Below, in pieces: positions 44,500-64,000 of a stretch of 64,000 bases of DNA. The stretch comes from an uncultured Planctomycetales bacterium (GTDB lineage: Bacteria > Planctomycetota > Planctomycetia > Pirellulales > S012-138), in assembly GCA_937927735.1 (NCBI GenBank), contig CALBRZ010000083.1, positions 544 to 64,543 of the forward strand, written 5' to 3'. Position numbers and translations under genes: made by a program. Below the pieces are notes generated by a model. The model saw nothing but the letters and a program-made list of their open reading frames with translations. It was not told the origin of the DNA and searched no databases. The stretch's first letter is position 1. Every line of letters begins with the position of its first letter.

Positions 44500-44983
44500 T
44501 CGTGATAACTCATGCCTCAGGGCGCCCCCCCTGGAACTGAGTTTACGGACCATGCGGCGCAGCGGCCGCAAAATCCGCGTAGTTCATCAATTCGGCATGT
44601 TGAAACCGTGGCTAGAGAAAAGCCTTGCGGATTTTGCAAACTTTGACGGCACCCGATAGCAGCAAGCGGCCGCTATCAGCGCCAGCTTTTGCCCGGTGGA
44701 GACGCAACGAACCTCGGCTCGCCAGTTCCCGAGGACGTGGGGAGCACGTTGGGCTGAAAAGATTGCAGACGCCAGGTCATGCCAGCACAGTGGCTGAGCA
44801 ACGATCGTTTGCAGCAGCACGACCAGAATTCGCCCAGGATGAGGCAGTTTTCGCCCCGACTGGGTTTGCCTCGCGGCGGCCGTTGGCATATCGTTTGCCG
44901 CTCTTTATGCACTTCGCCCGCATCGCCGCCGCCATTGCTCCTGCTATCGCCGGCATGCGTTCAACACATGCAAGGGGTCACTG

Positions 44984-45160: not shown

Positions 45161-45315
45161 TGGCGATTTTGCTCGGGTGAATGAACCTGCCCCGCCATCG
45201 CGGCCCGGCCGCCTGGCTCGTTCCCAAGATTTCGCCGCTACGCTACACTGCGCCGCGCGTGCTTGCTTTATCCAGCGACACCGTCGCAGCGCTCATAGGA
45301 TGGGGGGAACGAGCA

Positions 45316-47385
45316 ATGGCCAAACGACAACAAGTGTGGCTTGGGAGGGCTATCGCCGCGTGGCTGTTCGTCGGTTGCCTGATGCCGGCGCCAACCCGCG
45401 CCGACGAAGGCATGTGGCTGTTCAACGAGCTGCCACGCGAGTACTTGAGGGAGAAGTACGGCTTCGAGCCGACCGACGCCTGGATCGAGCACCTGATGAA
45501 GGCGTGCGTGCGGTTCAACTCGGGCGGCTCGGCCTCGTTCGTTTCCGCCGATGGTCTGGTGCTGACCAATCATCACGTCGGCGCCGACACACTGCATAAG
45601 CTGTCCACGGCCGAACGGAACCTGTACACCGACGGTTTCTACGCCAAGACGCTCAGCGACGAGATCCCCGCGCCCGACCTGGAACTGAATCAGCTCGTTT
45701 CGATCGAGGATGTGACCGAGCAGGTCAACCAGGCGGTTACCGAGGGGATGTCGCCGGCCGAGGCGGCGCAGGCTCGGCGGGCGGCGATGGCCAAGATCGA
45801 GCAGCAGTCACTCAAGCAGACGGGCCTGCGAAGCGACGTCGTTACGCTCTATGGCGGCGCGAAATATCATCTCTATCGCTATAAACGCTACACCGACGTG
45901 CGGCTGGTCTGGTCGCCGGAGGAAGCCATCGCCTTCTTTGGCGGCGATGCCGACAACTTTGAGTATCCGCGTTACTGCCTGGATGTATGCCTGTTTCGCG
46001 TTTATGAAAACGGGAAACCCGCCAAGATTGAGCACTATCTGAAACTTTCAGACGGCAAGCTCAAGGAGGAAGAACTGGTCTTCGTGGCCGGCAACCCCGG
46101 CAGCACCAATCGTATCTATACGGTCGCGGCTCTTACGCATTTGCGCGATACCTGGCTGCCGTACTACATGGATTACCTGCGGCGACAGGAGATCCTGCTG
46201 CAACAGTTCGGTCTGGAAGGCGTCGAACAAGAGCGGCGCGCGGCGGAAGAGTTGAACTCAATTCAGAACGCCCGCAAATCCCTGTGGGGGTCGCTGAGCG
46301 GCTTGCAGGATCCGGCCTTCTTCCGCACCAAGCGACAGCGCGAAGCCGAACTCCGGGCAGCCATTGCCAGGCATCCCAAGCTGAAGGCGTACGAATCCGC
46401 CTTCGACGACATCGCCGCGGCCCAAAAGCGCAAGGCTCAGATCCAAGGTCAGGCTCCGGCGCTTGCCGGCCGGCTGTTTGAGATTGCCGAGACGCTCGTG
46501 CAAATGGCCGCCGAGGATACCAAGCCCAGCGATGAGCGGCTCCGTGAGTATCGCGACTCCAACCGCGAGTCGCTGCTGCAAGATTTGTACTCCACGGCGC
46601 CTATCTACGCCGACTTGGAGCAGGTGAAGCTGGCCGACTCCATCGCCCGCATGGCTGAACGCCTGGGCGGTGATCACCCGCTGGTGCGCAAGGTACTTTC
46701 AGGTAAGAGCCCGAAAGATCGCGCGGCGGCCCTGATCGCCGGTACCAGGCTGTTCGACGTGGAGGAACGCAAGAAGCTGGCCGAGCAAGGTCTGGCCGGG
46801 ATTGAAGCCAGTAATGACCCCATGATTGTTCTGGCCCGGCTGGTGGACCCACGCACGCGAGAAATCCGCAAAGAAGCCGAGGAAATCGCTGAGATTGAGC
46901 GGCAAGCCTACGCCAAGATCGCGCAGGCGTTGTTCGAGCTGAGCGGCACGGCGCTCTATCCCGATGCCACGTTCACTTTGCGGCTGGCGTTTGGCCCGAT
47001 CCGCGGCTATCAGGAGGGAGGGCAAACCATCCCGGCCTGGACCACGATCGGGGGCGCGTTTGAATCGCAGCAGCGGCATGGCGGCCGCGAACCCTGGAGG
47101 CTGCCGGAAAGCTGGATGAAGAACCGCGATCGACTCAACCTGCAAACGCCCTTCAATTTTGTCTGCACGGCCGACATCATCGGGGGGAACTCGGGCAGCC
47201 CCGTGGTGAACCGGGCCGGTGAACTGGTGGGCGTGATCTTCGACGGCAACATCCAATCGCTCACCGCCAACTACATGTACAGCGATGAGCAGGCCAGGGC
47301 CGTTTCGGTGGCCATCGCCGCCATGATCGAGGCTCTGGACAAGATCTACGGGGCCGAGCGGGTTTTGAAGGAACTGGGGCGCTGA
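45316..47385 (+). CDS. peptidase S46 family dipeptidyl-peptidase (DPP7/DPP11-like)
   Basis: Start re-called at MAKRQQVWLGRAIAAWLFVGCLMPAPTRADEGMW. S46 N-terminus DEGMWLFNELP, catalytic-His context LVLTNHHVG, and Ser context IIGGNSGSPVVN. Confidence 0.9.
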   Translation: MAKRQQVWLGRAIAAWLFVGCLMPAPTRADEGMWLFNELPREYLREKYGFEPTDAWIEHLMKACVRFNSGGSASFVSADGLVLTNHHVGADTLHKLSTAERNLYTDGFYAKTLSDEIPAPDLELNQLVSIEDVTEQVNQAVTEGMSPAEAAQARRAAMAKIEQQSLKQTGLRSDVVTLYGGAKYHLYRYKRYTDVRLVWSPEEAIAFFGGDADNFEYPRYCLDVCLFRVYENGKPAKIEHYLKLSDGKLKEEELVFVAGNPGSTNRIYTVAALTHLRDTWLPYYMDYLRRQEILLQQFGLEGVEQERRAAEELNSIQNARKSLWGSLSGLQDPAFFRTKRQREAELRAAIARHPKLKAYESAFDDIAAAQKRKAQIQGQAPALAGRLFEIAETLVQMAAEDTKPSDERLREYRDSNRESLLQDLYSTAPIYADLEQVKLADSIARMAERLGGDHPLVRKVLSGKSPKDRAAALIAGTRLFDVEERKKLAEQGLAGIEASNDPMIVLARLVDPRTREIRKEAEEIAEIERQAYAKIAQALFELSGTALYPDATFTLRLAFGPIRGYQEGGQTIPAWTTIGGAFESQQRHGGREPWRLPESWMKNRDRLNLQTPFNFVCTADIIGGNSGSPVVNRAGELVGVIFDGNIQSLTANYMYSDEQARAVSVAIAAMIEALDKIYGAERVLKELGR

Positions 47386-49735: not shown

Positions 49736-50344
49736 TTACTTGGCCGCGGCGTAACGCCGGGCAACTTCGTCCCAGTTGATCACGTTGAAGAATGCGTTGA
49801 TGTACTCAGGCCGCCGGTTCTGGTACTTCAGGTAATAGGCGTGTTCCCACACATCCAGGCCCAGGATCGGGGTGTGGCCATGCATCAGCGGCGTGTCCTG
49901 GTTGGGCGTGCTCTCGATGTGCAGGTTCTTGTTGCCGTCCAGGCACAGCCAGGCCCAGCCGCTGCCGAAGCGGTTGGCGGCCGCGTCGCTGAACTGTTCC
50001 TTGAACTTCTCGAAGCTGCCGAAGGTCGCGTTGATGGCTGCGGCCAGTTCGCCCTTTGGTTCGCCACCGCCGTTGGGGCTCATGATGGTCCAGAACAACG
50101 AGTGGTTGGCGTGGCCGCCGCCGTTGTTCCGCACCGCGGTGCGAATGTTCTCAGGCACCGTGTCGATCTTGGCCATCAGCTCCTCGATCGGCAGATTGCC
50201 CAGGTCGGTGTTCTCGATCGCCGCGTTCAGCTTCGCCACGTAGGTCGCATGATGCTTGTCGTGATGGATCTCCATCGTCTTGGCATCAATGTGCGGCTCC
50301 AGGGCGTCGAAGGCGTAAGGCAGGTCCGGAAGGGTATAAGCCAT
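49736..50344 (-). CDS. sodA: superoxide dismutase (Mn type by sequence)
   Basis: [33 protein letters not shown] and NQD...DVWEHAYY. The GGGHxNHS plus late Gln pattern favours Mn over Fe. Confidence 0.9.
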
Positions 50345-50839
50345 GTCTGTTTCTCCTGGTCAAGGTTGGCCCGGATGACAGCCGCGGGCCGAACGCACAA
50401 GAATCATCGTTTCCGTCCAGCGCGGAGGAAACGCCCGCCGCTGCTGAATCGCGAATCGGGTACACGCCCAGCACTGCGGCCGGCGTGCCACTGGCCGAGG
50501 CCAGCGCCAACAGCCTGCCGCTGCGGCATTAGGGCGATCGTACGCTGCCCGGTGCGCGGCCTGCTGCTCGCTTGACATTGCTCGACATGCGAATGTGGAA
50601 CATACCCAATTCGGCGCGCGCTGGCAATTCGCCTGAAGGGCCAATCAAAAACCCTCGCACCGCACCAATCGATGCTCTAAGCAAGGCCGATGCCAGGGGG
50701 AAACCTGCTCCCGTCGCCCGCACCAGGCCTGCGGGATACGATCTAACAGGCGGGAACGTTGACGTTGACTAGCGCGGGGCGGCGCTACGGTTGGCAGCGG
50801 CCGCAGCCGGAGTTCCCGTCGTCACGTCACCCCAGGTTT

Positions 50840-52828
50840 ATGATGAGCAACGAGCGACTTGAAAGTGGTCTGTTGCCAAGCGGAGCACACGACGCGCACG
50901 CTTCGGTCCCCGTTGTTCCCAGCGACGAGCCTGCGCGGTTAGAGCTGTCGGCCGAAGCCATGCGGGCGATGGGCTATCAGGTGATCGATCAACTGGTCGA
51001 ACGCTTTGTGAAGCTGCCCGAGAAGCCGGCCACGCGCATCGTCCCACGGCCGGTCTTGAAGGAGAAACTGTCGGCTCCGCCGCCGGAAGAACCCGAGCCG
51101 TGGGGCCGCATTCTCCAGCAGACCCAAGATGACGTGATGACGGCTGTGGGGCTTACCACGCATCCCCGCTTTGCGTTCGTGCCGAGCCCCAGCAACTTCG
51201 TCAGTGTGATGGCCGATTGCCTGGCGGCTGGCTTCAACATCTTCGGCGGCAACTGGTTGGAGGGGGCCGGCCCCTGCCAGGTGGAACGCACGGTCATCGA
51301 CTGGATGCGCGCCTGGTGCGGCATGCCGGAATCCACCGGTGGCGTGCTGGTTAGCGGTGGCTCACAGGCCAACCTGACGGCGCTGGCGACCGCCCGGCAT
51401 GTGAAGCTCCGCAACGAAGTGTCCCGCGGCGTGGCCTACGGCTCGGACCAGTGCCACTCGTCGCTGCTGCGAGGCTTTCGCGTGCTGGGCTTTTCCCAGG
51501 ATCAGTTCGTCCGGCTTCCGTCCGACGAGCATTTCCGGCTGCCGGTCGAGGCCTTACGCGCCCGAGTGGCGGAAGATCGTGCTCGCGGTTTGCACCCGTT
51601 TTGCGTGGTGGCCAACGCCGGCACAACAAATACCGGTGCGGTTGATCCCCTGGACGAACTGGCCGACTTCTGCCAGCAAGAGGGGCTCTGGCTGCATGCC
51701 GACGGCGCGTACGGCGCCGCGGCCGTTCTTTCGCCAGCCGGCCGCGAGGCCTTGCGAGGCATCGAGCGGGTGGATTCGCTGACCATCGACCCGCACAAAT
51801 GGCTGTTCCAGCCCTACGAGTGCGGCTGCGTGCTGGTCCGCGATTGGCAACACCTGTTCGGGGCGTTTCAGGTCACGGCCGAGTATCTGGCCGATGCCCT
51901 GCGGATCAGCGAGGACGTGAACTTCCAGGACCTGGGCATCCAGCTCACCCGGTCATTCCGCGCCCTGAAGCTGTGGATGTCGATCCGGTTCTTCGGGCTG
52001 GCGGCGTTCCGCGAGGCAATTACCCGGGGCATCGAACTGGCCCAGCAGGCGGAACAGATCGTGCGCGAAACCCAGGGGCTGCATCTGTTCACACCGGCTC
52101 AGTTGGGCATCTTGACCTTTTATTACGCGGAACCGGAGCACGACTTGGCCGCGGCCAATGAGCTGAATCAACGGATTGTGAACCGGGTCTTGGACGAGGC
52201 GTTTGCCACCGTGACGTCGACGATGCTTCGCGACCGCCGCGTTTTGCGGATGTGCATCATCAACCCCCGCACGACGGTGGACGACCTGCGTCAAACTGTC
52301 GCACGTCTGGCACAGTTCGGACGTGAGGAATCCCAGCGGACGAGGGGGGCAGATAGCTCATCTTCCTTGCATTCCGCAAGTTTTCAGCGACTTTCGCTGG
52401 ATGATGACACCTCTTGTTGGACGGAGCGACAGGTGGGGGGCACCTTCGAGCGGTTCGCGTCCCCCGCTGGCTGCGGAATAGCAAGCATCCACGGTCGTTG
52501 CTATCTTGCGATTGCCGTGAGTGCCGCCGTGCGTGGCTTGCCGCGGGCCAGAGACCGTGCCCCGTGCCATGTTCCACCCGAAGGGGTGTGGCAATTTGCC
52601 GCACCCTGCCAGGGGGCTTGTCTGGGGCGCCCCATCGTGTACAAAGGGCGCTTGACACTTGGCCGGGGGGTCTACGAGTCGCCTCGCTTGCAAACTTTCG
52701 TGCAAGCGCAATGGTTTCTGGTCTTATCGGGCGCGTGCGTTGTCGAGTGCAGGTCTGATGTTGCGCTCGCTTTTCAGCGAGCGACCAAGCACCAAGAGTC
52801 GACACAATGGCCGAGAAAAAGAAGTTGA
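50840..52828 (+). CDS. PLP-dependent group II (aromatic-amino-acid-type) decarboxylase with an unexplained C-terminal extension
   Basis: Start re-called at MMSNERLE. Motifs HPRFFAF-like HPRFAFVPSP, SGGSQANL and DPHKWLFQPYECG (PLP Lys). The recognisable domain ends near 52330, but the frame stays open to 52828. Confidence 0.85.
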   Translation: MMSNERLESGLLPSGAHDAHASVPVVPSDEPARLELSAEAMRAMGYQVIDQLVERFVKLPEKPATRIVPRPVLKEKLSAPPPEEPEPWGRILQQTQDDVMTAVGLTTHPRFAFVPSPSNFVSVMADCLAAGFNIFGGNWLEGAGPCQVERTVIDWMRAWCGMPESTGGVLVSGGSQANLTALATARHVKLRNEVSRGVAYGSDQCHSSLLRGFRVLGFSQDQFVRLPSDEHFRLPVEALRARVAEDRARGLHPFCVVANAGTTNTGAVDPLDELADFCQQEGLWLHADGAYGAAAVLSPAGREALRGIERVDSLTIDPHKWLFQPYECGCVLVRDWQHLFGAFQVTAEYLADALRISEDVNFQDLGIQLTRSFRALKLWMSIRFFGLAAFREAITRGIELAQQAEQIVRETQGLHLFTPAQLGILTFYYAEPEHDLAAANELNQRIVNRVLDEAFATVTSTMLRDRRVLRMCIINPRTTVDDLRQTVARLAQFGREESQRTRGADSSSSLHSASFQRLSLDDDTSCWTERQVGGTFERFASPAGCGIASIHGRCYLAIAVSAAVRGLPRARDRAPCHVPPEGVWQFAAPCQGACLGRPIVYKGRLTLGRGVYESPRLQTFVQAQWFLVLSGACVVECRSDVALAFQRATKHQESTQWPRKRS

Positions 52829-54057
52829 CCACTGCCGAGATCCTGGCGGCCGCGCGCAAGCTGGACTCTAAGGGGTCGCAGGGGTCAGAAACAACGCCCC
52901 CCGAATCTCCGCCACCTTCTCCCCCGACGGAAGCTGCGGCCAGTTCTTCCTCCGGTGAGTCTACCCCTGCAGCGGCCGATGCTCCCCAGCCGGCTGCCAC
53001 GCCCAGCTCCAGTGGCGGAAAACTCACTACGGCCGAGATTCTGGCCCTGGCCCGAGCCGGCAAAGCCGGCGGTGCCAAGCCGGCGGCAGCGGCCGAGACG
53101 CCTGCCCAGGAGCCGGCAACCCCGGCAAATCCGGCAAATCCGGCGAGTTCATCCGGTGGTCGGCCCAGCGTTCAGGAGATCCTGGCGATGGCCCGGGCCG
53201 GCAAAGGTGGCCAGCAACCTCCTGCCGAGCCGGCGGCCGAGCCGCCCGCTACACAACCCTCTGCGGCCAAGCCAACCGCCGCCAAACCGGAACCGGCAGC
53301 CTCGCAGGCCGAGGAAGTTCCGGCTGGTCCGCCCAAGACGGCAAGCATCCTGGCGGCGGCCCGGGCGGAAAAGAAACGCGGGCCCTTGAGCAAAGCCGAG
53401 GCCGGCTTGCTGCCCGGCCATGATGAATCGCGCATCGAAGAGGCGATTCCGCGTCCGGCCAAGCCGGTCGTGCCGCCTATGCCCGCCAAACCGGCGTATG
53501 CGCAAAAGAAGCCCGAGGGCGCTCAGCCCAAGGTCGACGAAGGCCGCCGCGGCGTGTTGGCGATGCTCAGTGCGATGGTCGGCACCTCGCTGGGGATAGG
53601 CTTTGGCGCGTTGGCCGGCACCGCGGGGTTGTGGTCGCTGGGGCTGGCTCGTTACATGTTCCCCAACATCCTGACGGAGCCGCCCAGCCAGTTTAAGGTG
53701 GGGCAGCCGTCGGACTTTCCGCCGGGTATGGTGGACGAGCGGTTCAAGGCGGCCTTTGGCGTGTGGATCGTCAACGCCGAGTACAACGGCCAGCAGATGA
53801 TCTACGCTTTGAAGACCGTCTGCACGCACCTGGGCTGCACGCCCAACTGGTTGGAAAGCGAGCAGAAGTTCAAATGCCCCTGCCACGGCAGCGGCTTTTA
53901 CATTGATGGGATCAACTTCGAGGGGCCGGCGCCCCGCCCCCTGGAACGGTACGCGATTCGAATCGCCGACGACGGCCAGTTGGAGATCGACAAGAGCCGC
54001 GTCTTCCAGGAAGAAAAGGGCGAGTGGACCAACCCCGACAGCTATGTGATCGTCTGA
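52807..54057 (+). CDS. Rieske [2Fe-2S] subunit of a cytochrome bc-type complex, with a 245-aa N-terminal extension
   Basis: CTHLGC...CPCHGSGF cluster-binding boxes. A twin-arginine EGRRGVL followed by the TM helix AMLSAMVGTSLGIGFGALAG at residues ~247-275. Ala/Pro-rich repeat-bearing N-terminus. Confidence 0.9.
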   Translation: MAEKKKLTTAEILAAARKLDSKGSQGSETTPPESPPPSPPTEAAASSSSGESTPAAADAPQPAATPSSSGGKLTTAEILALARAGKAGGAKPAAAAETPAQEPATPANPANPASSSGGRPSVQEILAMARAGKGGQQPPAEPAAEPPATQPSAAKPTAAKPEPAASQAEEVPAGPPKTASILAAARAEKKRGPLSKAEAGLLPGHDESRIEEAIPRPAKPVVPPMPAKPAYAQKKPEGAQPKVDEGRRGVLAMLSAMVGTSLGIGFGALAGTAGLWSLGLARYMFPNILTEPPSQFKVGQPSDFPPGMVDERFKAAFGVWIVNAEYNGQQMIYALKTVCTHLGCTPNWLESEQKFKCPCHGSGFYIDGINFEGPAPRPLERYAIRIADDGQLEIDKSRVFQEEKGEWTNPDSYVIV

Positions 54058-54250: not shown

Positions 54251-55027
54251 ATGCCGTCAATTGGCGAAACGGTACGCAACAGCCAGATCTGGAAGAGTAT
54301 CTTCCGTCACCCGATGCCGCTGGATCGGCGCAATCGCATCGTGGTGATGCTGACCAACTTCTTCCTGCACCTGCACCCGGTTTCGATCAAGAAGCAGGGC
54401 ATCGCGCTGAGCTACACCTGGTGCATGGGCGGGGTGACGTTCTTCCTGTTTCTGGTGGAGACCGTCACCGGCGTGCTGCTGATGTTCTATTACCGGCCGA
54501 CGCTCCAATGGGCGTTCACCGATATCCAGGCTTTGCGCGACGTCACCAGCCTGGGCATTCTCCGCGAGCTGCATCGCTGGGGGGCCCATGCCATGGTGAT
54601 TACCGTCTGGTTGCACATGTACCGGGTGTTCTTGACCGGCAGTTACAAACCTCCGCGAGAATTCAACTGGGTCGTGGGGGTGATCCTGTTGTTATTAACG
54701 CTGTTGTTGTCGTTCACCGGCTACTTGCTGCCGTGGGACCAGTTGGCCATATGGGCCATCACGGTGGGCTCCAATATGGCCCGGGCGACTCCCTTCTTAG
54801 GCAGCGAAGGCCCCGGCCAGCAGTTGCTGTCCATCGGCGGCATCGACATGATCACCAGTGCCTCGGACGCGCGGTTCGGCCTCTTGGGGGCACGGTTTGT
54901 CGGTGAAGAAACGCTGAACCGGTTTTACGTGCTGCACTGCATCGCAATTCCCCTGGCGGTGGCGATGCTCTTGGCGATTCACTTTTGGCGAGTGCGGAAG
55001 GACGGCGGGATCAGCGGTCCGCTGTAA
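54251..55027 (+). CDS. cytochrome b6-type subunit (N-terminal four-helix half of cytochrome b)
   Basis: [60 protein letters not shown] and AIWAITVG are classic cyt b/b6 heme-ligand and Qo-region helices. Confidence 0.92.
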
Positions 55028-55165: not shown

Positions 55166-56509
55166 ATGGATGAACATATGCATGGCGCGTCGTTAGACTT
55201 CGTCGACAAGGCCTCCTCCTTCCTGGGCCCCTACTACATTACGATGGCCGCGCTCAACGCGGTGGTGGCCGGGGTGCTGCAGTTCCGGTTGCAGCGCAGC
55301 GGCCTGGCCCTGGGCTGCCTGATCGCCACGATCGCCTTTGTCATCCTGGGGGCGTTCGCATGGTCGGGCTCGCTACCTGGGCTGGGGCACAATACCGAGC
55401 ATCTGATCAACTCGCTCTTGAGCGGGAACCGCGGCGCGGTGGTCTACACCGTGGGCACGGCGGTTGGCCTGGCGGTGCTGTATTGGTTCCGCCGCTTCTT
55501 CGTGCAGCCGGTGGTGGCCTACATCGGGTTCAACCTGGTGATGCTGCTGCTGGGGTTGTCGATGACCAACCCCAATTTCTGGGAGATCGTCGCCAAGCCC
55601 GACAACGTACCGATCGTGATGCTCGTGCTGCTGCTGGGCTTTTTCACCTGGTTGGCCACGTGGAAAGCCGTGCAGAACGACGATCGGGCCCGGCAGGGCC
55701 TGCCGCCGCTGGAATCGCTCGATAACGAGAAAGTGCTGGTGTGGCCCGACCTGGTCTACACCGAGCTGATCTGCATGGTGCTGCTGACGGCGCTGCTGTT
55801 GGTTTGGGCCATCGTGCTCAAGGCGCCGCTGGAAGAACCGGCCAGCGCGGTCAAAACGCCTAACCCCTCCAAGGCCCCGTGGTACTTCCTGGGGCTGCAA
55901 GAAATGCTCGTGTACTACGATCCCTGGATGGCCGGCGTGGTGCTGCCCAGCTTGGTGATCGTGGGGTTGATGGCGATTCCCTACCTGGACTTCAACAAGG
56001 AAGGCAACGGCTACTACACGATCGAGAAACGCAAGTTCGCGTACCTGACCTTCCAGATCGGCTTTCTGCTGCTGTGGGTCACGTTGATCGTGCTGGGCAC
56101 CTTCCTGCGAGGGCCCAACTGGAGCTTCTTCGGCCCATTTGAGTACTGGGATCCCCATAAGGTCGAGGCCCAGAACAACGTCAACCTCTCGGACTACTTC
56201 TGGATCAACCTGATGGGGGCCAGCGTGCCGAGGGTGACCAGCGACATGGGCACGGCGGAATCGCTGTGGATGATCCTCAAACGCGAAGGGCTGGGGATCG
56301 TCCTGGTGCTGGGCTACTTCCTGTTCTTGCCGCCCGTGCTGGCGGCCACGGTCCTGCGGCCGTTTTTCATCCGGATGGGCTTCATCCGTTACATGGTGAT
56401 GGCCATTTTGCTGCTGTTCATGGCGGCCCTGCCGATCAAGATGCTGCTCCGCTGGACCTTGAACCTGAAGTACATCGTCAGCATCCCGGAGTACTTTTTC
56501 AACATTTAG
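55166..56509 (+). CDS. cytochrome b C-terminal / subunit IV-like protein, expanded (447 aa, about 10 TM helices)
   Basis: PSKAPWYFLGLQEMLVYY (the PEWYF-type motif of cyt b C-terminal domain/PetD), flanked by extra N- and C-terminal hydrophobic helices. Confidence 0.85.
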   Translation: MDEHMHGASLDFVDKASSFLGPYYITMAALNAVVAGVLQFRLQRSGLALGCLIATIAFVILGAFAWSGSLPGLGHNTEHLINSLLSGNRGAVVYTVGTAVGLAVLYWFRRFFVQPVVAYIGFNLVMLLLGLSMTNPNFWEIVAKPDNVPIVMLVLLLGFFTWLATWKAVQNDDRARQGLPPLESLDNEKVLVWPDLVYTELICMVLLTALLLVWAIVLKAPLEEPASAVKTPNPSKAPWYFLGLQEMLVYYDPWMAGVVLPSLVIVGLMAIPYLDFNKEGNGYYTIEKRKFAYLTFQIGFLLLWVTLIVLGTFLRGPNWSFFGPFEYWDPHKVEAQNNVNLSDYFWINLMGASVPRVTSDMGTAESLWMILKREGLGIVLVLGYFLFLPPVLAATVLRPFFIRMGFIRYMVMAILLLFMAALPIKMLLRWTLNLKYIVSIPEYFFNI

Positions 56510-56578: not shown

Positions 56579-59500
56579 ATGCCTGCTACAGAACAAACTT
56601 GGCGCGACATCAAGAAAGTCCACCTGTTCTTTGGAATTTCCTCCGTGGCCATGCTGGCCGCCACGGTGTGGATGATCGCTGACGACCATAACCGCGAGTG
56701 GAAGACCTACCAGGAGCAGTATTACGGCCAGTTGGAAGTCTGGACGCTCCAGTCGCGGATCTACGAACAACTGGCGGGTGATTACGTCACCGGTGAGGAA
56801 GTGCGCGAACACGTCGTGCGCGAGGTGAGCGCGCAGCCGCCCGAGCCCGCTTTCGGCAAGCTGTTCATGCTGTACGTGGCGCAGCGCGCGCAACCTCGCG
56901 ATGGCGAAGCCGTGGAACTGGTCAGCTTCAAGGCGAACGCCGATGCGCGGGGCAAGCTGCCCGAGGCGGGCGCCGCCGAGGAACGTTTTTACCAGGTGAA
57001 CGAAGCGGCCCTGGCCGCGGCGGCCCTGTACGACCAGTTGGCTCAGCTTTCGGTCAGTTTGCAGATCGATCGGGCGACCCTCGAACGCGTTACGGATCCG
57101 CAGCGCAAGAAGGTGTTGCAGGGTCAGATCCAGGCCGCCGAAAAGCGGCTGGAAATCGTCAACCAGCAGGTGACCGAGCAGCTGGCTTCACTGCGGCCGC
57201 AGATCGATCAGACACTCACCCACTACTGGAAGAACGTCCCCGGCGACACACAGCAGTTGCTCGCCGCGATTGATTCGTCGCTGAATGCCGCGGTGGAAGC
57301 GCCATCGCCCGAACGCCGAGCGCAGTTCGTGCGCGAGCTTGAGGCCGTGATCAAACAGGCCTTGTTTCGCGAAGAGGTGCTGCAGCGCGATCTGAAGTTC
57401 CGCCGGGCTGACCTGGACGAGGCCCGCAGCGCATTCAACCTGGCCTTCGGCAACGACGCCCCGGCCGCCGAGTTGCGTGAGTTGCAGGCCAACGTCGACG
57501 CCATCAGCGCCGAGGTCAACGATCTGAACAGCCGGTACGAGTCGGCCAAAACCTATCGCGAACGGCTGGAACGTGCCCGCAACGCGGTCAACGCGCCGGT
57601 GGGCTATGCGGAGCAGAACCTCGAGCGGTATCGCATGGACATGAACCGGCTGGAGGAGCAGTTGGCCAAGAGCCGGCCCAATGTCGGCAAGAAGCTGCTC
57701 AACATGCCGATTCTGGACGCCTTCAGCAAGGAAGGCGACATCAAGGTGCGGCAGATCTGGCTGCCGGATCTGACGATCGACTTCAACTTCCAGGACGTGG
57801 CCCGGTTCGACCGCTGCATGACCTGCCACGTGGGCATCGAGAAGACGGCGCCCGGCTCGGCTGTTGCCGCCGGTTATCCGCATGAGCACGTGCTGGATGG
57901 CGTGCAGCTCAAGACGCCGGCCGAACCGCCAACCTTGGACAGCGGGCAAGAAGGCGATGAAACGGCCGATGCCACGATCATCATTCCCAGCGAGCTGTCC
58001 AACGAGCAACAGAATCGCCTGTTGCTCCAGGCGTACGGCTTCCGATTGGCCGATCGCGGCGTGTTCAATGCCAACGATGCGACCATCGAGTTTGTGATGG
58101 ATCGCAGCTTTGCTGCCGACGCGCTGTTGCAACGCGGCGACGTGCTGGTGGCGATCGGCGGCAAGGACGTGTGGTCGCGTCAGGACGCCGTCGACCTGCT
58201 GCTGGGCGTGGTCAAGTGGGGCGAGCCACTGGAACTGAAGGTCCGCCGCGGCGTCCCGCATCCCTACAGCACGCACCCGCGGTTCGAGCTGTTCGGGGCT
58301 TCGACCAGTCCTCACCCGTTTGCCACGGTAGGCTGCACAATTTGCCACGATGGCCAGGGTAGCGCCACGGCGTTCAAGTGGGCCTCGCACTCGCCCAACT
58401 CGGTCGAACAGCTCCAGCAATGGACCAAGAAGTACGGCTGGTTCTACAACCACCACTGGATCTTTCCGATGATGCCCAAGCGGTTCTCGGAAAGCCTATG
58501 CCTCAAGTGCCATCACGACGTGGTGGAGTTGTTGCCCAGCGAGCGGTTCCCCGAGCCGCCGGCACCCAAGCTGATGCAGGGCTACAACCTGGTTCGCGAG
58601 TACGGCTGCTTCGGCTGCCACGAGATCAAGGGCTATGACAGCCCCACGCGGAGCATCGGTCCCGACATGCGGCTGGAGCCTGGCTACACACCCGCGGCTC
58701 TGGCCCTGTATGCCGATCCGGAACTCTATCGCAATGAAACCTACCGTCGCGATCATCCCGAGAGCTACGAGCAGCGCCTCCAGCAACTGTTCGGTCCCGG
58801 CGTGACCGTGGGCCAGGACGGCAAGCCGGTGTACAAGCCGGACGCGGTTCCGCAAGGCTTCTCGGCTGAGGAAGCCAACGCGGGCTTGGCGAAGTTCACC
58901 CAGAATCTGCAAGATCTGGCCGGACGCGTGGTGCGCGATCCATCGAACGATACCGCACGGCGCCGGCTGGTGCAGCTTCTGAAAGAGGACGAAGCCCGGG
59001 CCAAGAACGCCATTTCGCCCGAGCCGGCTTACCTCAGCAGCCAGCATCATCGCCTGGCGTTGGTGTTGGCCGACGTTGAGGTGCCCGGCAAGATGCGCCC
59101 GGTCGGCCCGAGCCTCCGCTATGTCTCCAGCAAGCTCTCCAAGGAGTTTGTCTACAACTGGATTCGCAATCCGCGCGAGTACCAGCCCAAGACGCGGATG
59201 CCGCGGTTTTTCGGTCTGTATGACCACCTGCTCTCCGAAGAGAAGGAAGAGGGCGAGGCCTACGGCGAAACGCTCCAGGAGCCGTACCACACCGAGAAGC
59301 TGGAGCAGATCGAGATTCGGGCGATCACCGAGTATCTGCTGACCTCCAGCCAGCCGTTCATCCATGCGACTAAGCCGGCCGAGGTGACCGAGGCTCCGGA
59401 TGCGGAACGCGGCAAGAACTTCTTTGCCGATCGCGGCTGCCTGGCCTGCCACCAGCACAGCGAGTTTCCGGATCAAGAGCTGACGGCCGACCAGGGGCCG

Positions 59501-61570
59501 AACCTCTCGAACATCGGCAACAAGCTCCGGGCTGGCGGCGAGGAAGCGGCCGAGAAGGGCGCCCGCTGGCTGTATAGCTGGTTGAAGAACCCGGCGCACT
59601 ACTCGCACCGGACCAAGATGCCCAACATGCTGTTGGAGCCGGTAAAGGAAGCCGACGGCAAGGTGGTCGATCCGGCGGCCGACATCGCGCTGTTTTTGAT
59701 GAACTCGACCAACGCCTGGGAGCCGGCGCCGCTGCCGCAGATCGACCAGGATGCGCTGTACAACCTGGCCCTGGGGCACCTCCAGGGCGTTTTCACCCGG
59801 CAGCAGGCCGAGCAGTATCTCCAGACCGGCATTCCGCTGAACCTGGCCAACGAGATCAAGGGCGATGAAGCCGAACTGCTTGGCACGTTCAAAGACGAAA
59901 CTGACCGCGTGAATCGGTTGCTGCGGTTCGTCGGTGCCCGGTCCGTACGCAAGTACGGCTGCTTCGGCTGCCACGACATCCCCGGCATGGAAACGGCCAA
60001 GCCGATCGGTACCGGCCTGGCCGACTGGGGACGCAAGGAGCCTTCGAAGATCGCCTTCAACCAGATCGGTCAGTACATCAAGCACTCCGATCCCGACGTG
60101 GTGATCACCGGCCCGGATGGCCAGCCGCAATTGGACCTGGAAGGTTTAAAGGATAAGGACAAGGCGTTCTTCATCCACGCCCTGCTCTCGCATCATCGCG
60201 AAGGGTTCTTGTGGCAGAAGCTGCGCGCTCCGCGGAGCTTCGACTACGAGATGACGCAGAACATGCGTTACGACGAACGGCTGCGGATGCCGCAGTTCCC
60301 GTTCACTGAAGAAGAACGCGAAGCGGTGATGACCTTCATCCTGGGGTTGGTTGCCGAGCCGCCGGCCGACCAGTTCGTGTACTCGCCTGATCCGCGGCAG
60401 AAGGCCATCAACGAAGGCCGCAAGGTGCTGGAGCAGTACAACTGCGGTGGCTGCCATACCCTGGAGATGCCCAAGTTTACGTTCACCTTCACGCCCGACT
60501 CGCTGCTGTACTCGCGGCAACCGCCGCCGGCACCGGACGATTACCTCGAGTTGTTCCAGCCGCACTTCACGCCCGAGCAGATCGAGCGATCGAAGCAGCT
60601 CGACAAGCGAGGGCTGGGGACGGCCACGATCACGGCCAAACGCAGCGTCGACCCGGCGCAAAAGGGCGTGGCGTGGGAGTCGGAGGACGACGACGGCAAT
60701 ATCATCCACCTCTACACGCTGTGGGAGGATGCGCTGGTCAACGGCAACTACTGGCTCGCCGGGGATAAGACCTTCCCGATCTATCCCGAGTCGATGGTGC
60801 CGGGGCCGGGCATTCCCAGCCAGCCTGAGCTGGGCGGCATGTTCGCCAACTGGCTGTATCCGCGCGTGGTCAATCAGCGCAATCCCAAGGACCTTGATAG
60901 CGCCTGGGGGTACGTGCCGCCGCCGCTGGTGGGCGAGGGCAACAAGGTGCAGCCGGGCTGGCTGTACGACTTCCTGCGGGAGCCGTACGTGATTCGTCCG
61001 GCGGTGGTGCTGCGGATGCCCAAGTTCAACCTGTCGCCGCAGGAGGTCGAGGCCCTGGTGAACTACTTCGCGGCCAAGGACAACGCGACGTATCCGTACG
61101 AGTACTACGATCGCCGCAATCCGCTGGAGCTCTCGGCCAAGGAACTGGCGTACGCCGACCGGCTGAGCGACGCCCTCAAGATCGTCACCAACCGCAACTA
61201 CTGCGTGGCTTGCCACAGCGTGGGCGACTTTACGCCCGAGGGCGGCGTCGATGCCCTGGCGCCCAACCTCGACCAGGTGCACAATCGTCTGCGGCCTGAC
61301 TACCTGCACAAGTGGATCGCCAATCCCAAGCACATCTTGCCCTACACGGCCATGTTCGCCGTGATCAAACCCAATGAGCCGATCCGGCCGGACAAGTTCC
61401 AGGGCGAGGTGGGCAAGCTGATCCAGGAAGGCACCAGCACGGAGCAGGTCGATGCCGTGGTGGATCTGCTCTTGAACTACGACCAGTACATGATGAGGCA
61501 GGTGCCGATCAAACCCATGATTCAGGGATCGCCGCCTGCCAATCTGGCACCAGCAGAAGACGACGAGTAA
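56579..61570 (+). CDS. giant membrane-anchored octaheme c-type cytochrome (1663 aa)
   Basis: GGAGAGGG precedes the ATG at 56579. N-terminal TM helix VHLFFGISSVAMLAATVWMI. Eight in-frame CxxCH motifs: 57815-57829 CMTCH, 58334-58348 CTICH, 58499-58513 CLKCH, 58607-58621 CFGCH, 59438-59452 CLACH, 59960-59974 CFGCH, 60443-60457 CGGCH, 61202-61216 CVACH. Confidence 0.9.
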   Translation: MPATEQTWRDIKKVHLFFGISSVAMLAATVWMIADDHNREWKTYQEQYYGQLEVWTLQSRIYEQLAGDYVTGEEVREHVVREVSAQPPEPAFGKLFMLYVAQRAQPRDGEAVELVSFKANADARGKLPEAGAAEERFYQVNEAALAAAALYDQLAQLSVSLQIDRATLERVTDPQRKKVLQGQIQAAEKRLEIVNQQVTEQLASLRPQIDQTLTHYWKNVPGDTQQLLAAIDSSLNAAVEAPSPERRAQFVRELEAVIKQALFREEVLQRDLKFRRADLDEARSAFNLAFGNDAPAAELRELQANVDAISAEVNDLNSRYESAKTYRERLERARNAVNAPVGYAEQNLERYRMDMNRLEEQLAKSRPNVGKKLLNMPILDAFSKEGDIKVRQIWLPDLTIDFNFQDVARFDRCMTCHVGIEKTAPGSAVAAGYPHEHVLDGVQLKTPAEPPTLDSGQEGDETADATIIIPSELSNEQQNRLLLQAYGFRLADRGVFNANDATIEFVMDRSFAADALLQRGDVLVAIGGKDVWSRQDAVDLLLGVVKWGEPLELKVRRGVPHPYSTHPRFELFGASTSPHPFATVGCTICHDGQGSATAFKWASHSPNSVEQLQQWTKKYGWFYNHHWIFPMMPKRFSESLCLKCHHDVVELLPSERFPEPPAPKLMQGYNLVREYGCFGCHEIKGYDSPTRSIGPDMRLEPGYTPAALALYADPELYRNETYRRDHPESYEQRLQQLFGPGVTVGQDGKPVYKPDAVPQGFSAEEANAGLAKFTQNLQDLAGRVVRDPSNDTARRRLVQLLKEDEARAKNAISPEPAYLSSQHHRLALVLADVEVPGKMRPVGPSLRYVSSKLSKEFVYNWIRNPREYQPKTRMPRFFGLYDHLLSEEKEEGEAYGETLQEPYHTEKLEQIEIRAITEYLLTSSQPFIHATKPAEVTEAPDAERGKNFFADRGCLACHQHSEFPDQELTADQGPNLSNIGNKLRAGGEEAAEKGARWLYSWLKNPAHYSHRTKMPNMLLEPVKEADGKVVDPAADIALFLMNSTNAWEPAPLPQIDQDALYNLALGHLQGVFTRQQAEQYLQTGIPLNLANEIKGDEAELLGTFKDETDRVNRLLRFVGARSVRKYGCFGCHDIPGMETAKPIGTGLADWGRKEPSKIAFNQIGQYIKHSDPDVVITGPDGQPQLDLEGLKDKDKAFFIHALLSHHREGFLWQKLRAPRSFDYEMTQNMRYDERLRMPQFPFTEEEREAVMTFILGLVAEPPADQFVYSPDPRQKAINEGRKVLEQYNCGGCHTLEMPKFTFTFTPDSLLYSRQPPPAPDDYLELFQPHFTPEQIERSKQLDKRGLGTATITAKRSVDPAQKGVAWESEDDDGNIIHLYTLWEDALVNGNYWLAGDKTFPIYPESMVPGPGIPSQPELGGMFANWLYPRVVNQRNPKDLDSAWGYVPPPLVGEGNKVQPGWLYDFLREPYVIRPAVVLRMPKFNLSPQEVEALVNYFAAKDNATYPYEYYDRRNPLELSAKELAYADRLSDALKIVTNRNYCVACHSVGDFTPEGGVDALAPNLDQVHNRLRPDYLHKWIANPKHILPYTAMFAVIKPNEPIRPDKFQGEVGKLIQEGTSTEQVDAVVDLLLNYDQYMMRQVPIKPMIQGSPPANLAPAEDDE

Positions 61571-61953
61571 TCGCCGATCGGCGCGCGCTCCGGATGGGGT
61601 AGCGCCCGGATAAGTGATTGGGGCTTTGGGGACGAGGGGTTCCAAACCTGTGACAAAATGCCGCAGGTTTGGGGCCCGGCGGTTCCGGTATCATGGAATG
61701 CGTCCTGACCTTGGGCACGTCAGGCACCCGAACCAACAAGACAGAGGGGGGCGCGAACCAGCGCTTCGGGGCTTATAATGTCCGGTTTGACCGCAAGGTG
61801 CGGTCGACGGTCCCCCCTAGCGGGCTGACTCCACTGGCCGGAGTGGCCGACGGGGGCGTGCCGAACTGGACTGGATTCGCCCAGGGAACAGGGGCGAGAG
61901 CCCTTTGGCAGGGCGCCGCGACGGCGTGCGGTGCCGCTGTTGGGAGAGAACGT

Positions 61954-62733
61954 ATGTTGCAGACGCGTTGGAGTTCGTTGTTCGCCTTGGCTGTCGCCCC
62001 GGCCATTGCCTGGCTGGGCTCGTCGCTGGCCGTGGCCGCTGAATGGGCCGATCTGACCGGCAAGTTTGTGTACGACGGCAAGCCGCCCGTGCCCAAGCCT
62101 GTCGAGATCACCAAGGATCAGGAGGCCTTCGGCAACCTCGGCCTGGTCGATGAATCGCTGCTGGTGTCCAAGGACGGCGGCATTGCCAACGTGGTCATTT
62201 ACGTCCGCACCCGCGATGTCGACATCCATCCCGACATCGAGAAGAACATCCCCAAGGAAGTGAAGTTCGACAACGTGGGCGGCCGCTTCGTGCCGCACAT
62301 CCTGCCGGTGTGGCTGGATAAGCAGAAGGTGATTCTGCACAACTCCGACCCCGTCCCTCACAACGCCAACGTGCAGCCGCTGGGCGACGAGGGCAAGAAT
62401 CCGCTGCTGCCCCCCAACACGGGCGTTGATCACAAGTTCAACCGCCAGCAACTGATTCCGGTGCCGGTGGCCTGCAATATCCACCCCTGGATGCGCGGCT
62501 TCATCCTGCCCCGCAACAACCCCTACACCGCCGTGACCGCCGAAGACGGCACCTTCACTTTGGAGAAGCTGCCGGCGGGCACCGAGTTGGAGTTCCAGGT
62601 GTGGCACGAGAAAGCCGGTTATCTGGATCCCAACGGTGAATGGGCCCGCGGCCGGTTCACCATGACCCTCAAGCCGGGCAAGAACGACCTGGGCACGATC
62701 CGCGTCGATCCGTCCGTGTTTGAGAAGAACTAA
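61954..62733 (+). CDS. secreted cupredoxin-like protein (amicyanin-type Cys-x2-His-x2-Met loop) with a C-terminal beta-sandwich
   Basis: Start re-called at MLQTRWSSLFALAVAPAIAWLGSSLAVAAE (signal peptide), with GGGAGAGAA upstream. Candidate type-1 Cu ligands: H in NSDPVPHNANV, then CNIHPWM. C-terminal TAEDGTFTLEKLPAGTELEFQVWHE. Confidence 0.75.
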   Translation: MLQTRWSSLFALAVAPAIAWLGSSLAVAAEWADLTGKFVYDGKPPVPKPVEITKDQEAFGNLGLVDESLLVSKDGGIANVVIYVRTRDVDIHPDIEKNIPKEVKFDNVGGRFVPHILPVWLDKQKVILHNSDPVPHNANVQPLGDEGKNPLLPPNTGVDHKFNRQQLIPVPVACNIHPWMRGFILPRNNPYTAVTAEDGTFTLEKLPAGTELEFQVWHEKAGYLDPNGEWARGRFTMTLKPGKNDLGTIRVDPSVFEKN

Positions 62734-62784: not shown

Positions 62785-63020
62785 GACTCGAAACCACGCG
62801 TTGAATATGGAATCGGCCAGCGCCGGACCGGCAGTGCGCCCCGGGCCGTGCAAGGGCCGTAGCTACCCAACCTTGCCGAGACACTAGAGAGCCGACGATC
62901 GCAGCGCGCACTTTTCTTCCTCGCGTGTGCTGACACCTGGCGGGGCCTGCGATGACCGCTGCCGGGGACCACACTCGCCAGGAATCGTCTGTTGGACCCG
63001 AACCGTTGGAGGCGGTTGCC

Positions 63021-63917
63021 ATGCGATGCCCTAGCCTGATGCTTGTTACCTGTGCCGCGCTCCTGACGACGGCCGTGGGCTGTGGCGACTCGTCCAGCGA
63101 TCGAGGGCCCCGGGCCAAGCCCGAGGTGGTGCAGAACCTGCGGGCACGCAACCAGGCCGGCAGCGCCGCCGGCCAGTCTGGCGGCAGCAGCATGGACCAG
63201 GCTGACGGCTGGGGTACCATCCGCGGCCGCTTTGTCTACGGCGGTCAGCCTCCCGCCCGGCCACCGCTCTCGGTGACCAAGGACGTTCAGTTCTGCGGCC
63301 AGCACCGCGTGCTCGATGAGTCGCTGGTGGTCGGCCCCGATGGCGGCGTGAAGAACGTCGTCGTGTTCCTCCGCACCCGCGATCCCAAGGTTCACGAATC
63401 GTACGCCGAGAAGATCAAGCAGCCGGTGGTCTTCGACAACCGCGATTGCCGCTTTGAGCCGCACGTGCTGCTGGTCCATACCTCGCAACCGGTGGAGATC
63501 CTCAACTCCGATCCGGTTGGCCATAACACCAGCGTCCAGTTCCAACGCAACCCGTCATTCAGCCAGGGCGTGGCCTCGAACCAGCGGGTGGTGCAGAAGA
63601 TGGACGTGGCGGAGACCTTGCCGGCTCCGGCGGCCTGCAATGTCCATCCCTGGATGGGCGGCTGGATCGTGGTCAAAGACAACCCCTACATGGCCGTGAC
63701 CGACGAGAACGGCAACTTCGTGATCGAGAACGTTCCGGCCGGCGTGGAACTGGAGTTCCAGGTCTGGCATGAACGCGGCGCCGGGAACCAAGGTTCCGTC
63801 GATGGCACGGGTTCCGTCACCAATGTCGATCGCGGCCGGTTCAAGGTCACCGTTCCCAAGGACGGTGAAGTGGATCTTAAGGATATCACCCTGCCGCCGT
63901 CGTCGTTCCGTTCGTAG
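63021..63917 (+). CDS. cupredoxin-like lipoprotein, paralog of 61954-62733
   Basis: Start re-called at MRCPSLMLVTCAALLTTAVGC (lipobox), with GGAGG 8 nt upstream. Same ligand pattern: NSDPVGHNTSV and CNVHPWM. C-terminal TDENGNFVIENVPAGVELEFQVWHE. Confidence 0.75.
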   Translation: MRCPSLMLVTCAALLTTAVGCGDSSSDRGPRAKPEVVQNLRARNQAGSAAGQSGGSSMDQADGWGTIRGRFVYGGQPPARPPLSVTKDVQFCGQHRVLDESLVVGPDGGVKNVVVFLRTRDPKVHESYAEKIKQPVVFDNRDCRFEPHVLLVHTSQPVEILNSDPVGHNTSVQFQRNPSFSQGVASNQRVVQKMDVAETLPAPAACNVHPWMGGWIVVKDNPYMAVTDENGNFVIENVPAGVELEFQVWHERGAGNQGSVDGTGSVTNVDRGRFKVTVPKDGEVDLKDITLPPSSFRS

Positions 63918-64000
63918 ACCGTCGCGCGGGGAGCAGGGCAGGACAGGGCACGGCCGCCGGATCACCGCCGACCATTCTGCCGCTTCGTTTGCCATGGACG

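Follow-up and report, generated by a model that had tools for sequence, protein, structure and literature searches.

Cytochrome c1, cytochrome f and the actinobacterial QcrC carry one or two hemes and a C-terminal anchor, and they are encoded beside a Rieske protein, cytochrome b and, where it is separate, subunit IV. QcrC is the diheme member of the actinobacterial bcc-aa3 supercomplex, whose qcr-cta gene arrangement is genetically linked to an aa3 oxidase. Multiheme cytochrome subunits of Rieske/cytochrome b complexes, anammox ones among them, are already known, and planctomycete complexes with a split cytochrome b and CxGG and APWY motifs have been catalogued (PMC5600118, PMC3509893, PMC4122944); the octaheme subunit analysed here is not described in these three papers. 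Here we analyse a stretch of 64,000 nucleotides (the window) of contig CALBRZ010000083.1 from an uncultured Planctomycetales bacterium, which encodes at 56579..61570 on the + strand an octaheme cytochrome c of 1663 amino acids (aa), an uninterrupted translation closed by a stop codon. We propose, at a probability of roughly 0.6, that this protein serves a planctomycete b6f-like Rieske/cytochrome b complex as its c-type cytochrome subunit, and that the PDZ domain lying between its first two hemes is an accessory for docking or assembly.

Like cytochrome c1, cytochrome f and QcrC, the octaheme protein shares an operon position beside Rieske, cytochrome b and subunit IV genes and is predicted to be membrane-anchored, periplasmic and c-type heme-binding; as with actinobacterial qcr-cta, its genes are linked to an aa3-type oxidase. 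It differs from all three in having eight hemes and an N-terminal anchor, and in adding a helical domain of ~200-330 aa and a PDZ insertion. We rejected membership of the cytochrome c1 or f families, neither of which matched the protein in Pfam or NCBIfam at E up to 1, in view also of the heme number and the N-terminal anchor. That it is a functional counterpart of cytochrome c1, cytochrome f or QcrC we regard as probable, though well short of certain.

The protein belongs to a family that appears to be widespread and never to have been described. Translation starts at ATG 56579, since homologues all open with MPATEQTWR and GGAGAGG lies 5-11 nucleotides (nt) upstream; a start at TTG 56561 was rejected in its favor. 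The 120 closest database homologues share 38-82% identity and span 1443-1673 aa, and homologues overall range from 1440 to 1826 aa, each with eight CxxCH motifs. An exhaustive profile search returned 556 clusters at 50% identity (E <= 1e-30), and a genome scan gave at least 590 confirmed stretches matching the pattern, of which one gene may contribute up to two. Almost all of the best 80 loci are labelled Planctomycetota (Pirellulales, Planctomycetia, Planctomycetaceae), and the few labelled uncultured bacterium, Chitinophagaceae or Kuenenia carry labels that are uninformative or probably mis-binned. Current annotations read 'hypothetical', 'c-type cytochrome' or 'PDZ domain-containing protein', the last being the name that NCBI gives to some members. 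A PDB sequence search with the full protein yielded weak SoxX and peroxidase class-I matches only, and it therefore has no solved homologue. Our literature searches, within the library that could be searched, found no description of the octaheme subunit, its helical domain, the nested PDZ or the link to an aa3 operon, and nothing relevant on a PDZ domain in a respiratory cytochrome. The parts of the protein, all on the + strand, are as follows.

56612..56689, +, N-terminal signal-anchor transmembrane helix, aa ~12-37 (hydropathy; AlphaFold helix 5-37)
56696..57673, +, periplasmic all-helical domain, aa 40-365, nine helices with short turns (AlphaFold)
56879..57298, +, lineage-specific insertion in the helical domain, aa ~101-240 (alignment occupancy)
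57815..57829, +, heme 1 motif CMTCH, aa 413-417, in the invariant context VARFDRCxxCH
57878..58258, +, PDZ module, aa 434-560 (AlphaFold, Foldseek, Pfam in homologues)
58259..58558, +, multiheme core with hemes 2 and 3, aa 561-660 (Pfam matches; conserved H566, H579, H604 and H625)
58571..59338, +, heme 4 module, aa 665-920, with GCFGCH, a FixO/CcoO-like segment and M874
59396..59728, +, heme 5 class-I module, aa 940-1050, with CLACH, GPNL and M1014 (PF00034)
59921..60364, +, heme 6 module, aa 1115-1262, with CFGCH and M1237
60401..61078, +, heme 7 module, aa 1275-1500, with CGGCH and M1480
61166..61498, +, heme 8 SoxX-like module, aa 1530-1640, with CVACH, APNL and M1592 (TIGR04485, PDB)

The eight CxxCH motifs, at aa 413, 586, 641, 677, 954, 1128, 1289 and 1542, take up all 16 cysteines of the protein. 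A sequence-only reading of this DNA had made the conservation of all eight a test of its proposal; exactly eight occur in each of the 120 closest homologues, so that their number is not a matter of chance, and across the same set the spacing is fixed at 55 aa between hemes 2 and 3 and at 36 aa between hemes 3 and 4. Together with the signal-anchor, the conserved motifs predict a multiheme c-type cytochrome that is exported to the periplasm. Candidate sixth ligands are conserved too. In the region of hemes 1-3, H566, H579 and H604 are invariant (120/120) and H625 is present in 118/120, and downstream of hemes 4-8 the five methionines M874, M1014, M1237, M1480 and M1592 are invariant (120/120) in MPxF-like contexts. 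Pfam c7, c3 and paired-CXXCH families match across aa 579-682 (hemes 2-4) in 32-37 of 37 homologues, and Cytochrom_C (class I), FixO, Cytochrome_CBB3 and SoxX profiles from Pfam and NCBIfam match on hemes 4-8. These invariant candidates and the character of the Pfam matches suggest three bis-His hemes (1-3) followed by five His/Met hemes (4-8).

The class-I-like modules with Met ligands described in the sequence-only reading are thus borne out for hemes 4-8. The class I profile PF00034 (cut-off 21.3 bits) scores 72.7 bits over the whole protein, 26.6 bits on the heme 5 module by itself and 18.8-21.5 bits, around the cut-off, on the isolated modules 6-8; the combination of a profile match with a distal Met is that of a predicted class I cytochrome c. 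Hemes 4-8 share with CcoO/CcoP (FixO/FixP) and SoxX the layout CxxCH...GPxL...W..NP...MPxF with its invariant Met. Unlike these proteins, the octaheme protein concatenates five such modules with large inserts, and neither cbb3 catalytic genes nor a SoxA partner gene lies near it. Two of the inserts match no profile: a lineage-specific one in the heme 4 module (aa ~720-780, 58736-58918) and a moderately conserved one of ~140 aa in the heme 7 module (aa ~1300-1440, 60476-60898).

Immediately upstream of the octaheme gene lie the genes for a Rieske protein, a cytochrome b6-type protein and a subunit IV, and immediately downstream those for two cupredoxin-like proteins.

52807..54057, +, Rieske [2Fe-2S] subunit, 416 aa (PF00355)
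54251..55027, +, cytochrome b6-type subunit, 258 aa, with a WCMGG (CxGG; heme-ci-type) motif (PF00033, 1.6e-41)
55166..56509, +, enlarged subunit IV, 447 aa, with ~9 hydrophobic segments and the APWY Qo motif at aa 237-240 (PF00032)
61669..62733, +, cupredoxin-like protein 1, ligand motif and conserved position; probable true start near 61954
62952..63917, +, cupredoxin-like protein 2, ligand motif and conserved position

The order Rieske, cytochrome b6, subunit IV, octaheme, all on one strand, recurs in every related locus that reaches far enough upstream, and a sister clade discussed below has the same order. The octaheme gene therefore co-localises with Rieske and cytochrome b genes as a subunit of such a complex should, and the gene cluster within the window holds no other cytochrome c1- or f-like gene; from these two observations we infer that its product is the cytochrome c subunit of the complex. 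The clade with the APWY Qo motif has been described (PMC4122944). The three helices of the b6f subunit IV compare with ~9 hydrophobic segments here. As observations in their own right, the Rieske protein carries before its transmembrane helix an Ala/Pro-rich N-terminal extension of ~250 aa (52807-53560) with the motif copies TTAEILAAAR, TTAEILALAR, SVQEILAMAR and TASILAAAR at aa 8, 74, 121 and 178; the cytochrome b6 C-terminus GGISGPL is identical in 64/67 relatives; and the subunit IV C-terminus IPE[FY][FS]LNF is nearly invariant.

Downstream, the related loci (L001-L080, L083 and L084 were covered on this side) extend the picture beyond the window, which ends at 64000, before the diheme cytochrome c and oxidase part seen in relatives. 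In each of the 44 loci whose flank reaches 5.5 kb or more, there are genes for one or more cupredoxin-like proteins, a diheme cytochrome c, COX2, COX1 and often CtaA, and UbiA/CtaB is sometimes found as well; the diheme cytochrome c (~450-540 aa) has two CxxCH motifs in 47/47 cases. Genes for a complex III-like assembly and for an aa3 oxidase thus form one super-operon in relatives. The two cupredoxin-like proteins are paralogous, and at least 115 of 117 homologues keep an H...C-x2-H-x2-M set (H231, C269, H272 and M275 in protein 1), which we take to be the amicyanin-type ligand spacing. They look like a type-1 copper family that escapes existing profiles. No cupredoxin match to them came from Pfam or from a PDB sequence search, and weak CarboxypepD_reg-like Pfam matches occur at their C-terminus.

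The same context bears on a different view of the protein, in which it would be an independent periplasmic redox hub or enzyme, acting for example on a sulfur or iron substrate, that is merely co-transcribed with the Rieske/cytochrome b genes. The SoxX model TIGR04485 scores 86.3 bits against a cut-off of 61, with its best stretch at aa 1541-1633 (61199-61477), and the heme 8 module matches SoxX 2c1d_B in the PDB (E 0.0035); MamP-type PDZ-heme proteins oxidise iron (PMC3971196), and three probable bis-His hemes would be atypical of a cytochrome c1 analogue. We nevertheless consider an independent enzyme quite improbable, as the SoxX score is reached only by summing three class-I stretches, neither soxA nor any other sox gene is nearby, and no heme stands out as a catalytic candidate among eight standard CxxCH motifs with conserved sixth-ligand candidates. 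Moreover, the Rieske and cytochrome b genes would then be left without a cytochrome c partner, and the synteny with aa3 oxidase is strict. Identity with SoxX itself, a small monoheme partner of SoxA, was ruled out by the length of 1663 aa, the summed score and the absence of sox genes among the neighbours, and family members are likely to be misannotated through the above-cut-off match to this equivalog.

Returning to the proposed cytochrome subunit, its most distinctive part is the PDZ module. The PDZ-like segment that the sequence-only reading had marked at 58030-58250 (aa 485-558) is confirmed by homologue profiles, AlphaFold and Foldseek, within a module that comprises a first strand (437-444), a variable loop (445-475), a helix (475-486) and a core (487-558). 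On this protein Pfam PDZ_6 stays just below its cut-off of 27 bits (24.4 with the full protein, 26.8 with the segment); among 37 diverse homologue segments, PDZ_2 matches 35 (best 8.5e-14) and PDZ_6 matches 34. A family profile finds the PDZ domains of DegP/DegQ, RseP and Ctp in the PDB at 1e-8 to 1e-3. The AlphaFold model has a predicted local distance difference test (pLDDT) of 94-98 over aa 434-560, and its top 50 Foldseek matches in the PDB are all PDZ domains, at probability 1.00 and with target-normalised TM-scores up to 0.77. By homologue profiles and model alike, the PDZ fold between hemes 1 and 2 is genuine.

The best-conserved positions of the domain include the loop Y486-G487-F488, the strand after it and the second helix A..YLL. 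Across the 37 diverse homologues this YG[FL] loop has an invariant G487 and a Y486 conserved in at least 90%, and in alignment its counterpart in DegP PDZ2 is the GxEGAEM loop region; it has the x-hydrophobic-G-hydrophobic form, before strand B, of a predicted carboxylate-binding loop. The PDZ domains of HtrA/DegP/DegQ, RseP and Ctp, which are the best profile matches, are likewise periplasmic and have the same loop, but the octaheme protein has no protease domain and places its PDZ within an electron-transfer polypeptide. The heme 1 motif of relatives without the domain is followed by ~40 residues and then by the invariant HPYSTHP segment, and because of this the PDZ is best read as a nested module that interrupts a loop of the heme 1-3 domain.

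A PDZ module inside a multiheme cytochrome is not without precedent, and the statement in the sequence-only reading that no such case was described is wrong as worded: MamP combines a PDZ domain with two magnetochrome hemes, and MamE is also a PDZ-magnetochrome protein (PMC3971196). Like the octaheme protein, both unite PDZ and CxxCH modules in one membrane-anchored, non-cytoplasmic polypeptide (PMC3971196). Their magnetochromes are minimal heme units of ~20 residues engaged in iron redox chemistry, and their PDZ is N-terminal to the hemes; in contrast, the octaheme protein has c7/c3-like and class-I folds, a respiratory operon and a PDZ that is nested inside the multiheme domain. The magnetochrome model PF18509 gave weak matches in 2/37 homologues (best 8e-4) and none in this protein. 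Given this near-absence and a respiratory instead of a magnetosome context, we rejected a MamP/MamE-type membership.

The position of the PDZ domain proved to vary across the family. A survey of 191 full-length eight-heme proteins with purpose-built hidden Markov models gave the following distribution.

PDZ after heme 1: 177 of 191
Two PDZ domains after heme 1: 4 of 191
PDZ after heme 5: 3 of 191
PDZ after heme 6: 1 of 191
No PDZ: 6 of 191

The tandem pairs between hemes 1 and 2 occur in P0033, P0101, P0137 and P0191; separately, P0013 and P0027 have long unclassified inserts between these hemes. A sister clade among the more distant representatives (its named records being Planctomycetaceae or Planctomycetota metagenome-assembled genomes) has eight hemes and the same operon, and no PDZ after heme 1. 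In this clade above-threshold Pfam matches locate a PDZ between hemes 5 and 6 in P0252, P0258 and P0260 and after heme 6 in P0253, and there is none anywhere in P0247 and P0262. The expected conservation of the PDZ segment among orthologues therefore holds for the 181 of 191 proteins that carry it after heme 1 and fails in the sister clade, where the domain is absent or relocated. Since it can be absent or lie elsewhere, the PDZ is, by its distribution in the surveyed sequences, a movable accessory that has been gained or moved several times and is not part of the redox core.

These distributions also bear on whether the PDZ does anything specific. It could be a tolerated structural insertion with no specific partner, whose effect in this lineage would be to stabilise the heme 1-3 core or to shield it: the six full-length members without it retain eight hemes and the same operon, and the site is a surface loop that measures ~40 aa in PDZ-less proteins. 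Conversely, the site-1 PDZ is retained in 181/191 at 33-60% identity, and gains at three sites with four duplications suggest selection for a PDZ function, so that we judge a mere structural insertion unlikely. About as unlikely, in our view, is a role as a dimerisation or scaffold element that positions the heme domains through PDZ-PDZ contacts between cytochrome subunits. Rieske/cytochrome b complexes are obligate dimers, and neither the Rieske nor the subunit IV C-terminal tail, both candidate ligands, covaries with the PDZ. In the MamP crystal, just such PDZ-PDZ contacts do most to hold the dimer together (PMC3971196). One fixed symmetric contact, however, fits poorly with positions after heme 1, 5 or 6, the nearest sequence relatives are the peptide-binding PDZ domains of HtrA, RseP and Ctp, and the YG[FL] loop is conserved. 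HtrA-like affinities, conserved groove elements and repeated acquisition lead us to favor, as most likely, a docking or assembly role in which the PDZ would grip a partner or neighbouring subunit by a peptide or strand.

A narrower form of this docking role, which we put forward tentatively and think rather doubtful, is that the PDZ acts as a movable module gripping a conserved hydrophobic C-terminal tail and so tethers the octaheme wire to another component of a planctomycete complex III-complex IV assembly. Candidate tails are those of the Rieske protein (S-[FY]-[VI]-x-[VA]), subunit IV (IPE[FY]FxNF) and the diheme cytochrome c (A[RK]DR[FL]). The Rieske tail is strikingly conserved and periplasmic, and the subunit IV tail is periplasmic by a crude hydropathy count. 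Rieske tails read NSKVEVV and NSFVEIA in PDZ-less relatives and, in one relative whose PDZ follows heme 5, ASYFQVG. The downstream gene order is also found in PDZ-less and alternative-site relatives, and operon content is identical with and without the PDZ; comparative genomics therefore gives no partner.

We suggest the following working model for the complex. The transmembrane helix would anchor the octaheme protein, followed in the periplasm by the helical domain and then by the eight-heme chain, which would consist of a compact three-heme core, probably bis-His (hemes 1-3), and five class-I-type His/Met modules (hemes 4-8). Menaquinol would be oxidised at the Qo site, reducing the Rieske cluster, from which electrons may pass into the octaheme chain, on to the two type-1-copper-like proteins and the diheme cytochrome c encoded downstream, and from these to the aa3-type oxidase, while the PDZ may grip its peptide or strand and aid assembly or docking. 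Several observations weigh against this model. Three bis-His hemes are normally of low potential and would be hard to place on a downhill path from Rieske protein to oxidase, which is the weak point of the scheme. The heme-binding parts of the AlphaFold model of aa 395-720 have a pLDDT of 35-55. For the two downstream proteins, the ligand motif is the one feature that speaks for the cupredoxin label. Finally, neither the Rieske nor the subunit IV tail covaries with the PDZ, both being hydrophobic in PDZ-less relatives too, so that naming either of them as the PDZ ligand is speculation; as these two tails are hydrophobic also where the site-1 PDZ is missing, no partner can be named.

The N-terminal part of the protein differs in places from what had been claimed. 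Its transmembrane anchor stands as proposed: the sole hydrophobic peak lies at aa 14-35 (mean Kyte-Doolittle value of 2.0 over 19 residues), within an AlphaFold helix at aa 5-37. The N-terminal 40 residues, transmembrane helix included, keep 57-65% identity across distant homologues, and for this reason a helix packed inside the complex appears to fit better than a cleaved signal peptide. The K/R-rich flank before the helix implies, by the positive-inside rule, an N-in, C-out orientation, in agreement with periplasmic heme attachment. H15 and H37 sit at the two membrane interfaces of the helix (56621-56689, aa 15-37). Both are invariant in a 35-sequence alignment, as are D36, R39 and K42, and they are kept in 119/120 and 117/120 sequences, respectively, of the larger set; the pair could be ligands of a cofactor shared with another subunit, or packing contacts.

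The region that follows had been described as a coiled-coil stalk of ~350 aa. Its helical nature is upheld, whereas a single long coiled coil is ruled out by the breaks between helices and by a weak heptad signal. AlphaFold predicts nine helices (40-65, 68-84, 90-103, 132-170, 174-217, 222-240, 244-291, 296-337 and 339-365) at a pLDDT of 95-98 and a predicted template-modelling score of 0.71; the long helices have 40-48 residues, with turns of only 3-4 residues between them. Heptad-like periodicity is modest (z ~2, best period 3.4-3.55) and limited to the conserved helices 244-365. The helix pattern suggests that the domain is probably an antiparallel bundle, ~6-7 nm long. Its conservation among orthologues is likewise split: helices 244-365 are conserved, while the ~140 aa of the insertion at aa ~101-240, which supplies the two long helices 132-170 and 174-217, are lineage-specific and occupied in 6-46% of 117 homologues; heme 1 lies near residue 296 in most homologues. 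No Pfam family covers the domain, all coiled-coil Pfam matches being sub-threshold, and comparison with PDB folds gave nothing better than E = 0.067.

Other genes around the cluster appear unrelated to it. They lie at 45181-47385 (+), 49736-50344 (-), 50759-52828 (+) and 39988-44571 (-), and include a peptidase S46 and a pyridoxal-phosphate (PLP)-dependent decarboxylase. Judged by eye, an open reading frame of 202 aa is Fe/Mn superoxide dismutase-like, and another of 1527 aa has a secretin-like C-terminal half.

Soils and waters harbour abundant planctomycetes, whose aerobic respiratory chain is essentially uncharacterised. The family described here suggests a b6f-like complex in which an eight-heme wire replaces cytochrome c1 or f and has its gene linked to those for copper proteins, a diheme cytochrome c and an aa3 oxidase; if this is true, the octaheme wire is a new layout of the link between complex III and complex IV. 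While most of what we report is a well-founded description of architecture, the surprising evolutionary feature of the family is its wandering PDZ, and a PDZ gained at several positions in a respiratory cytochrome offers a handle on the docking of such assemblies. Were the PDZ to tether the wire through a C-terminal tail, a respiratory chain would for the first time be seen to use a PDZ domain in assembly or docking, and the tethering would explain why PDZ domains have been inserted at three points of the same protein.

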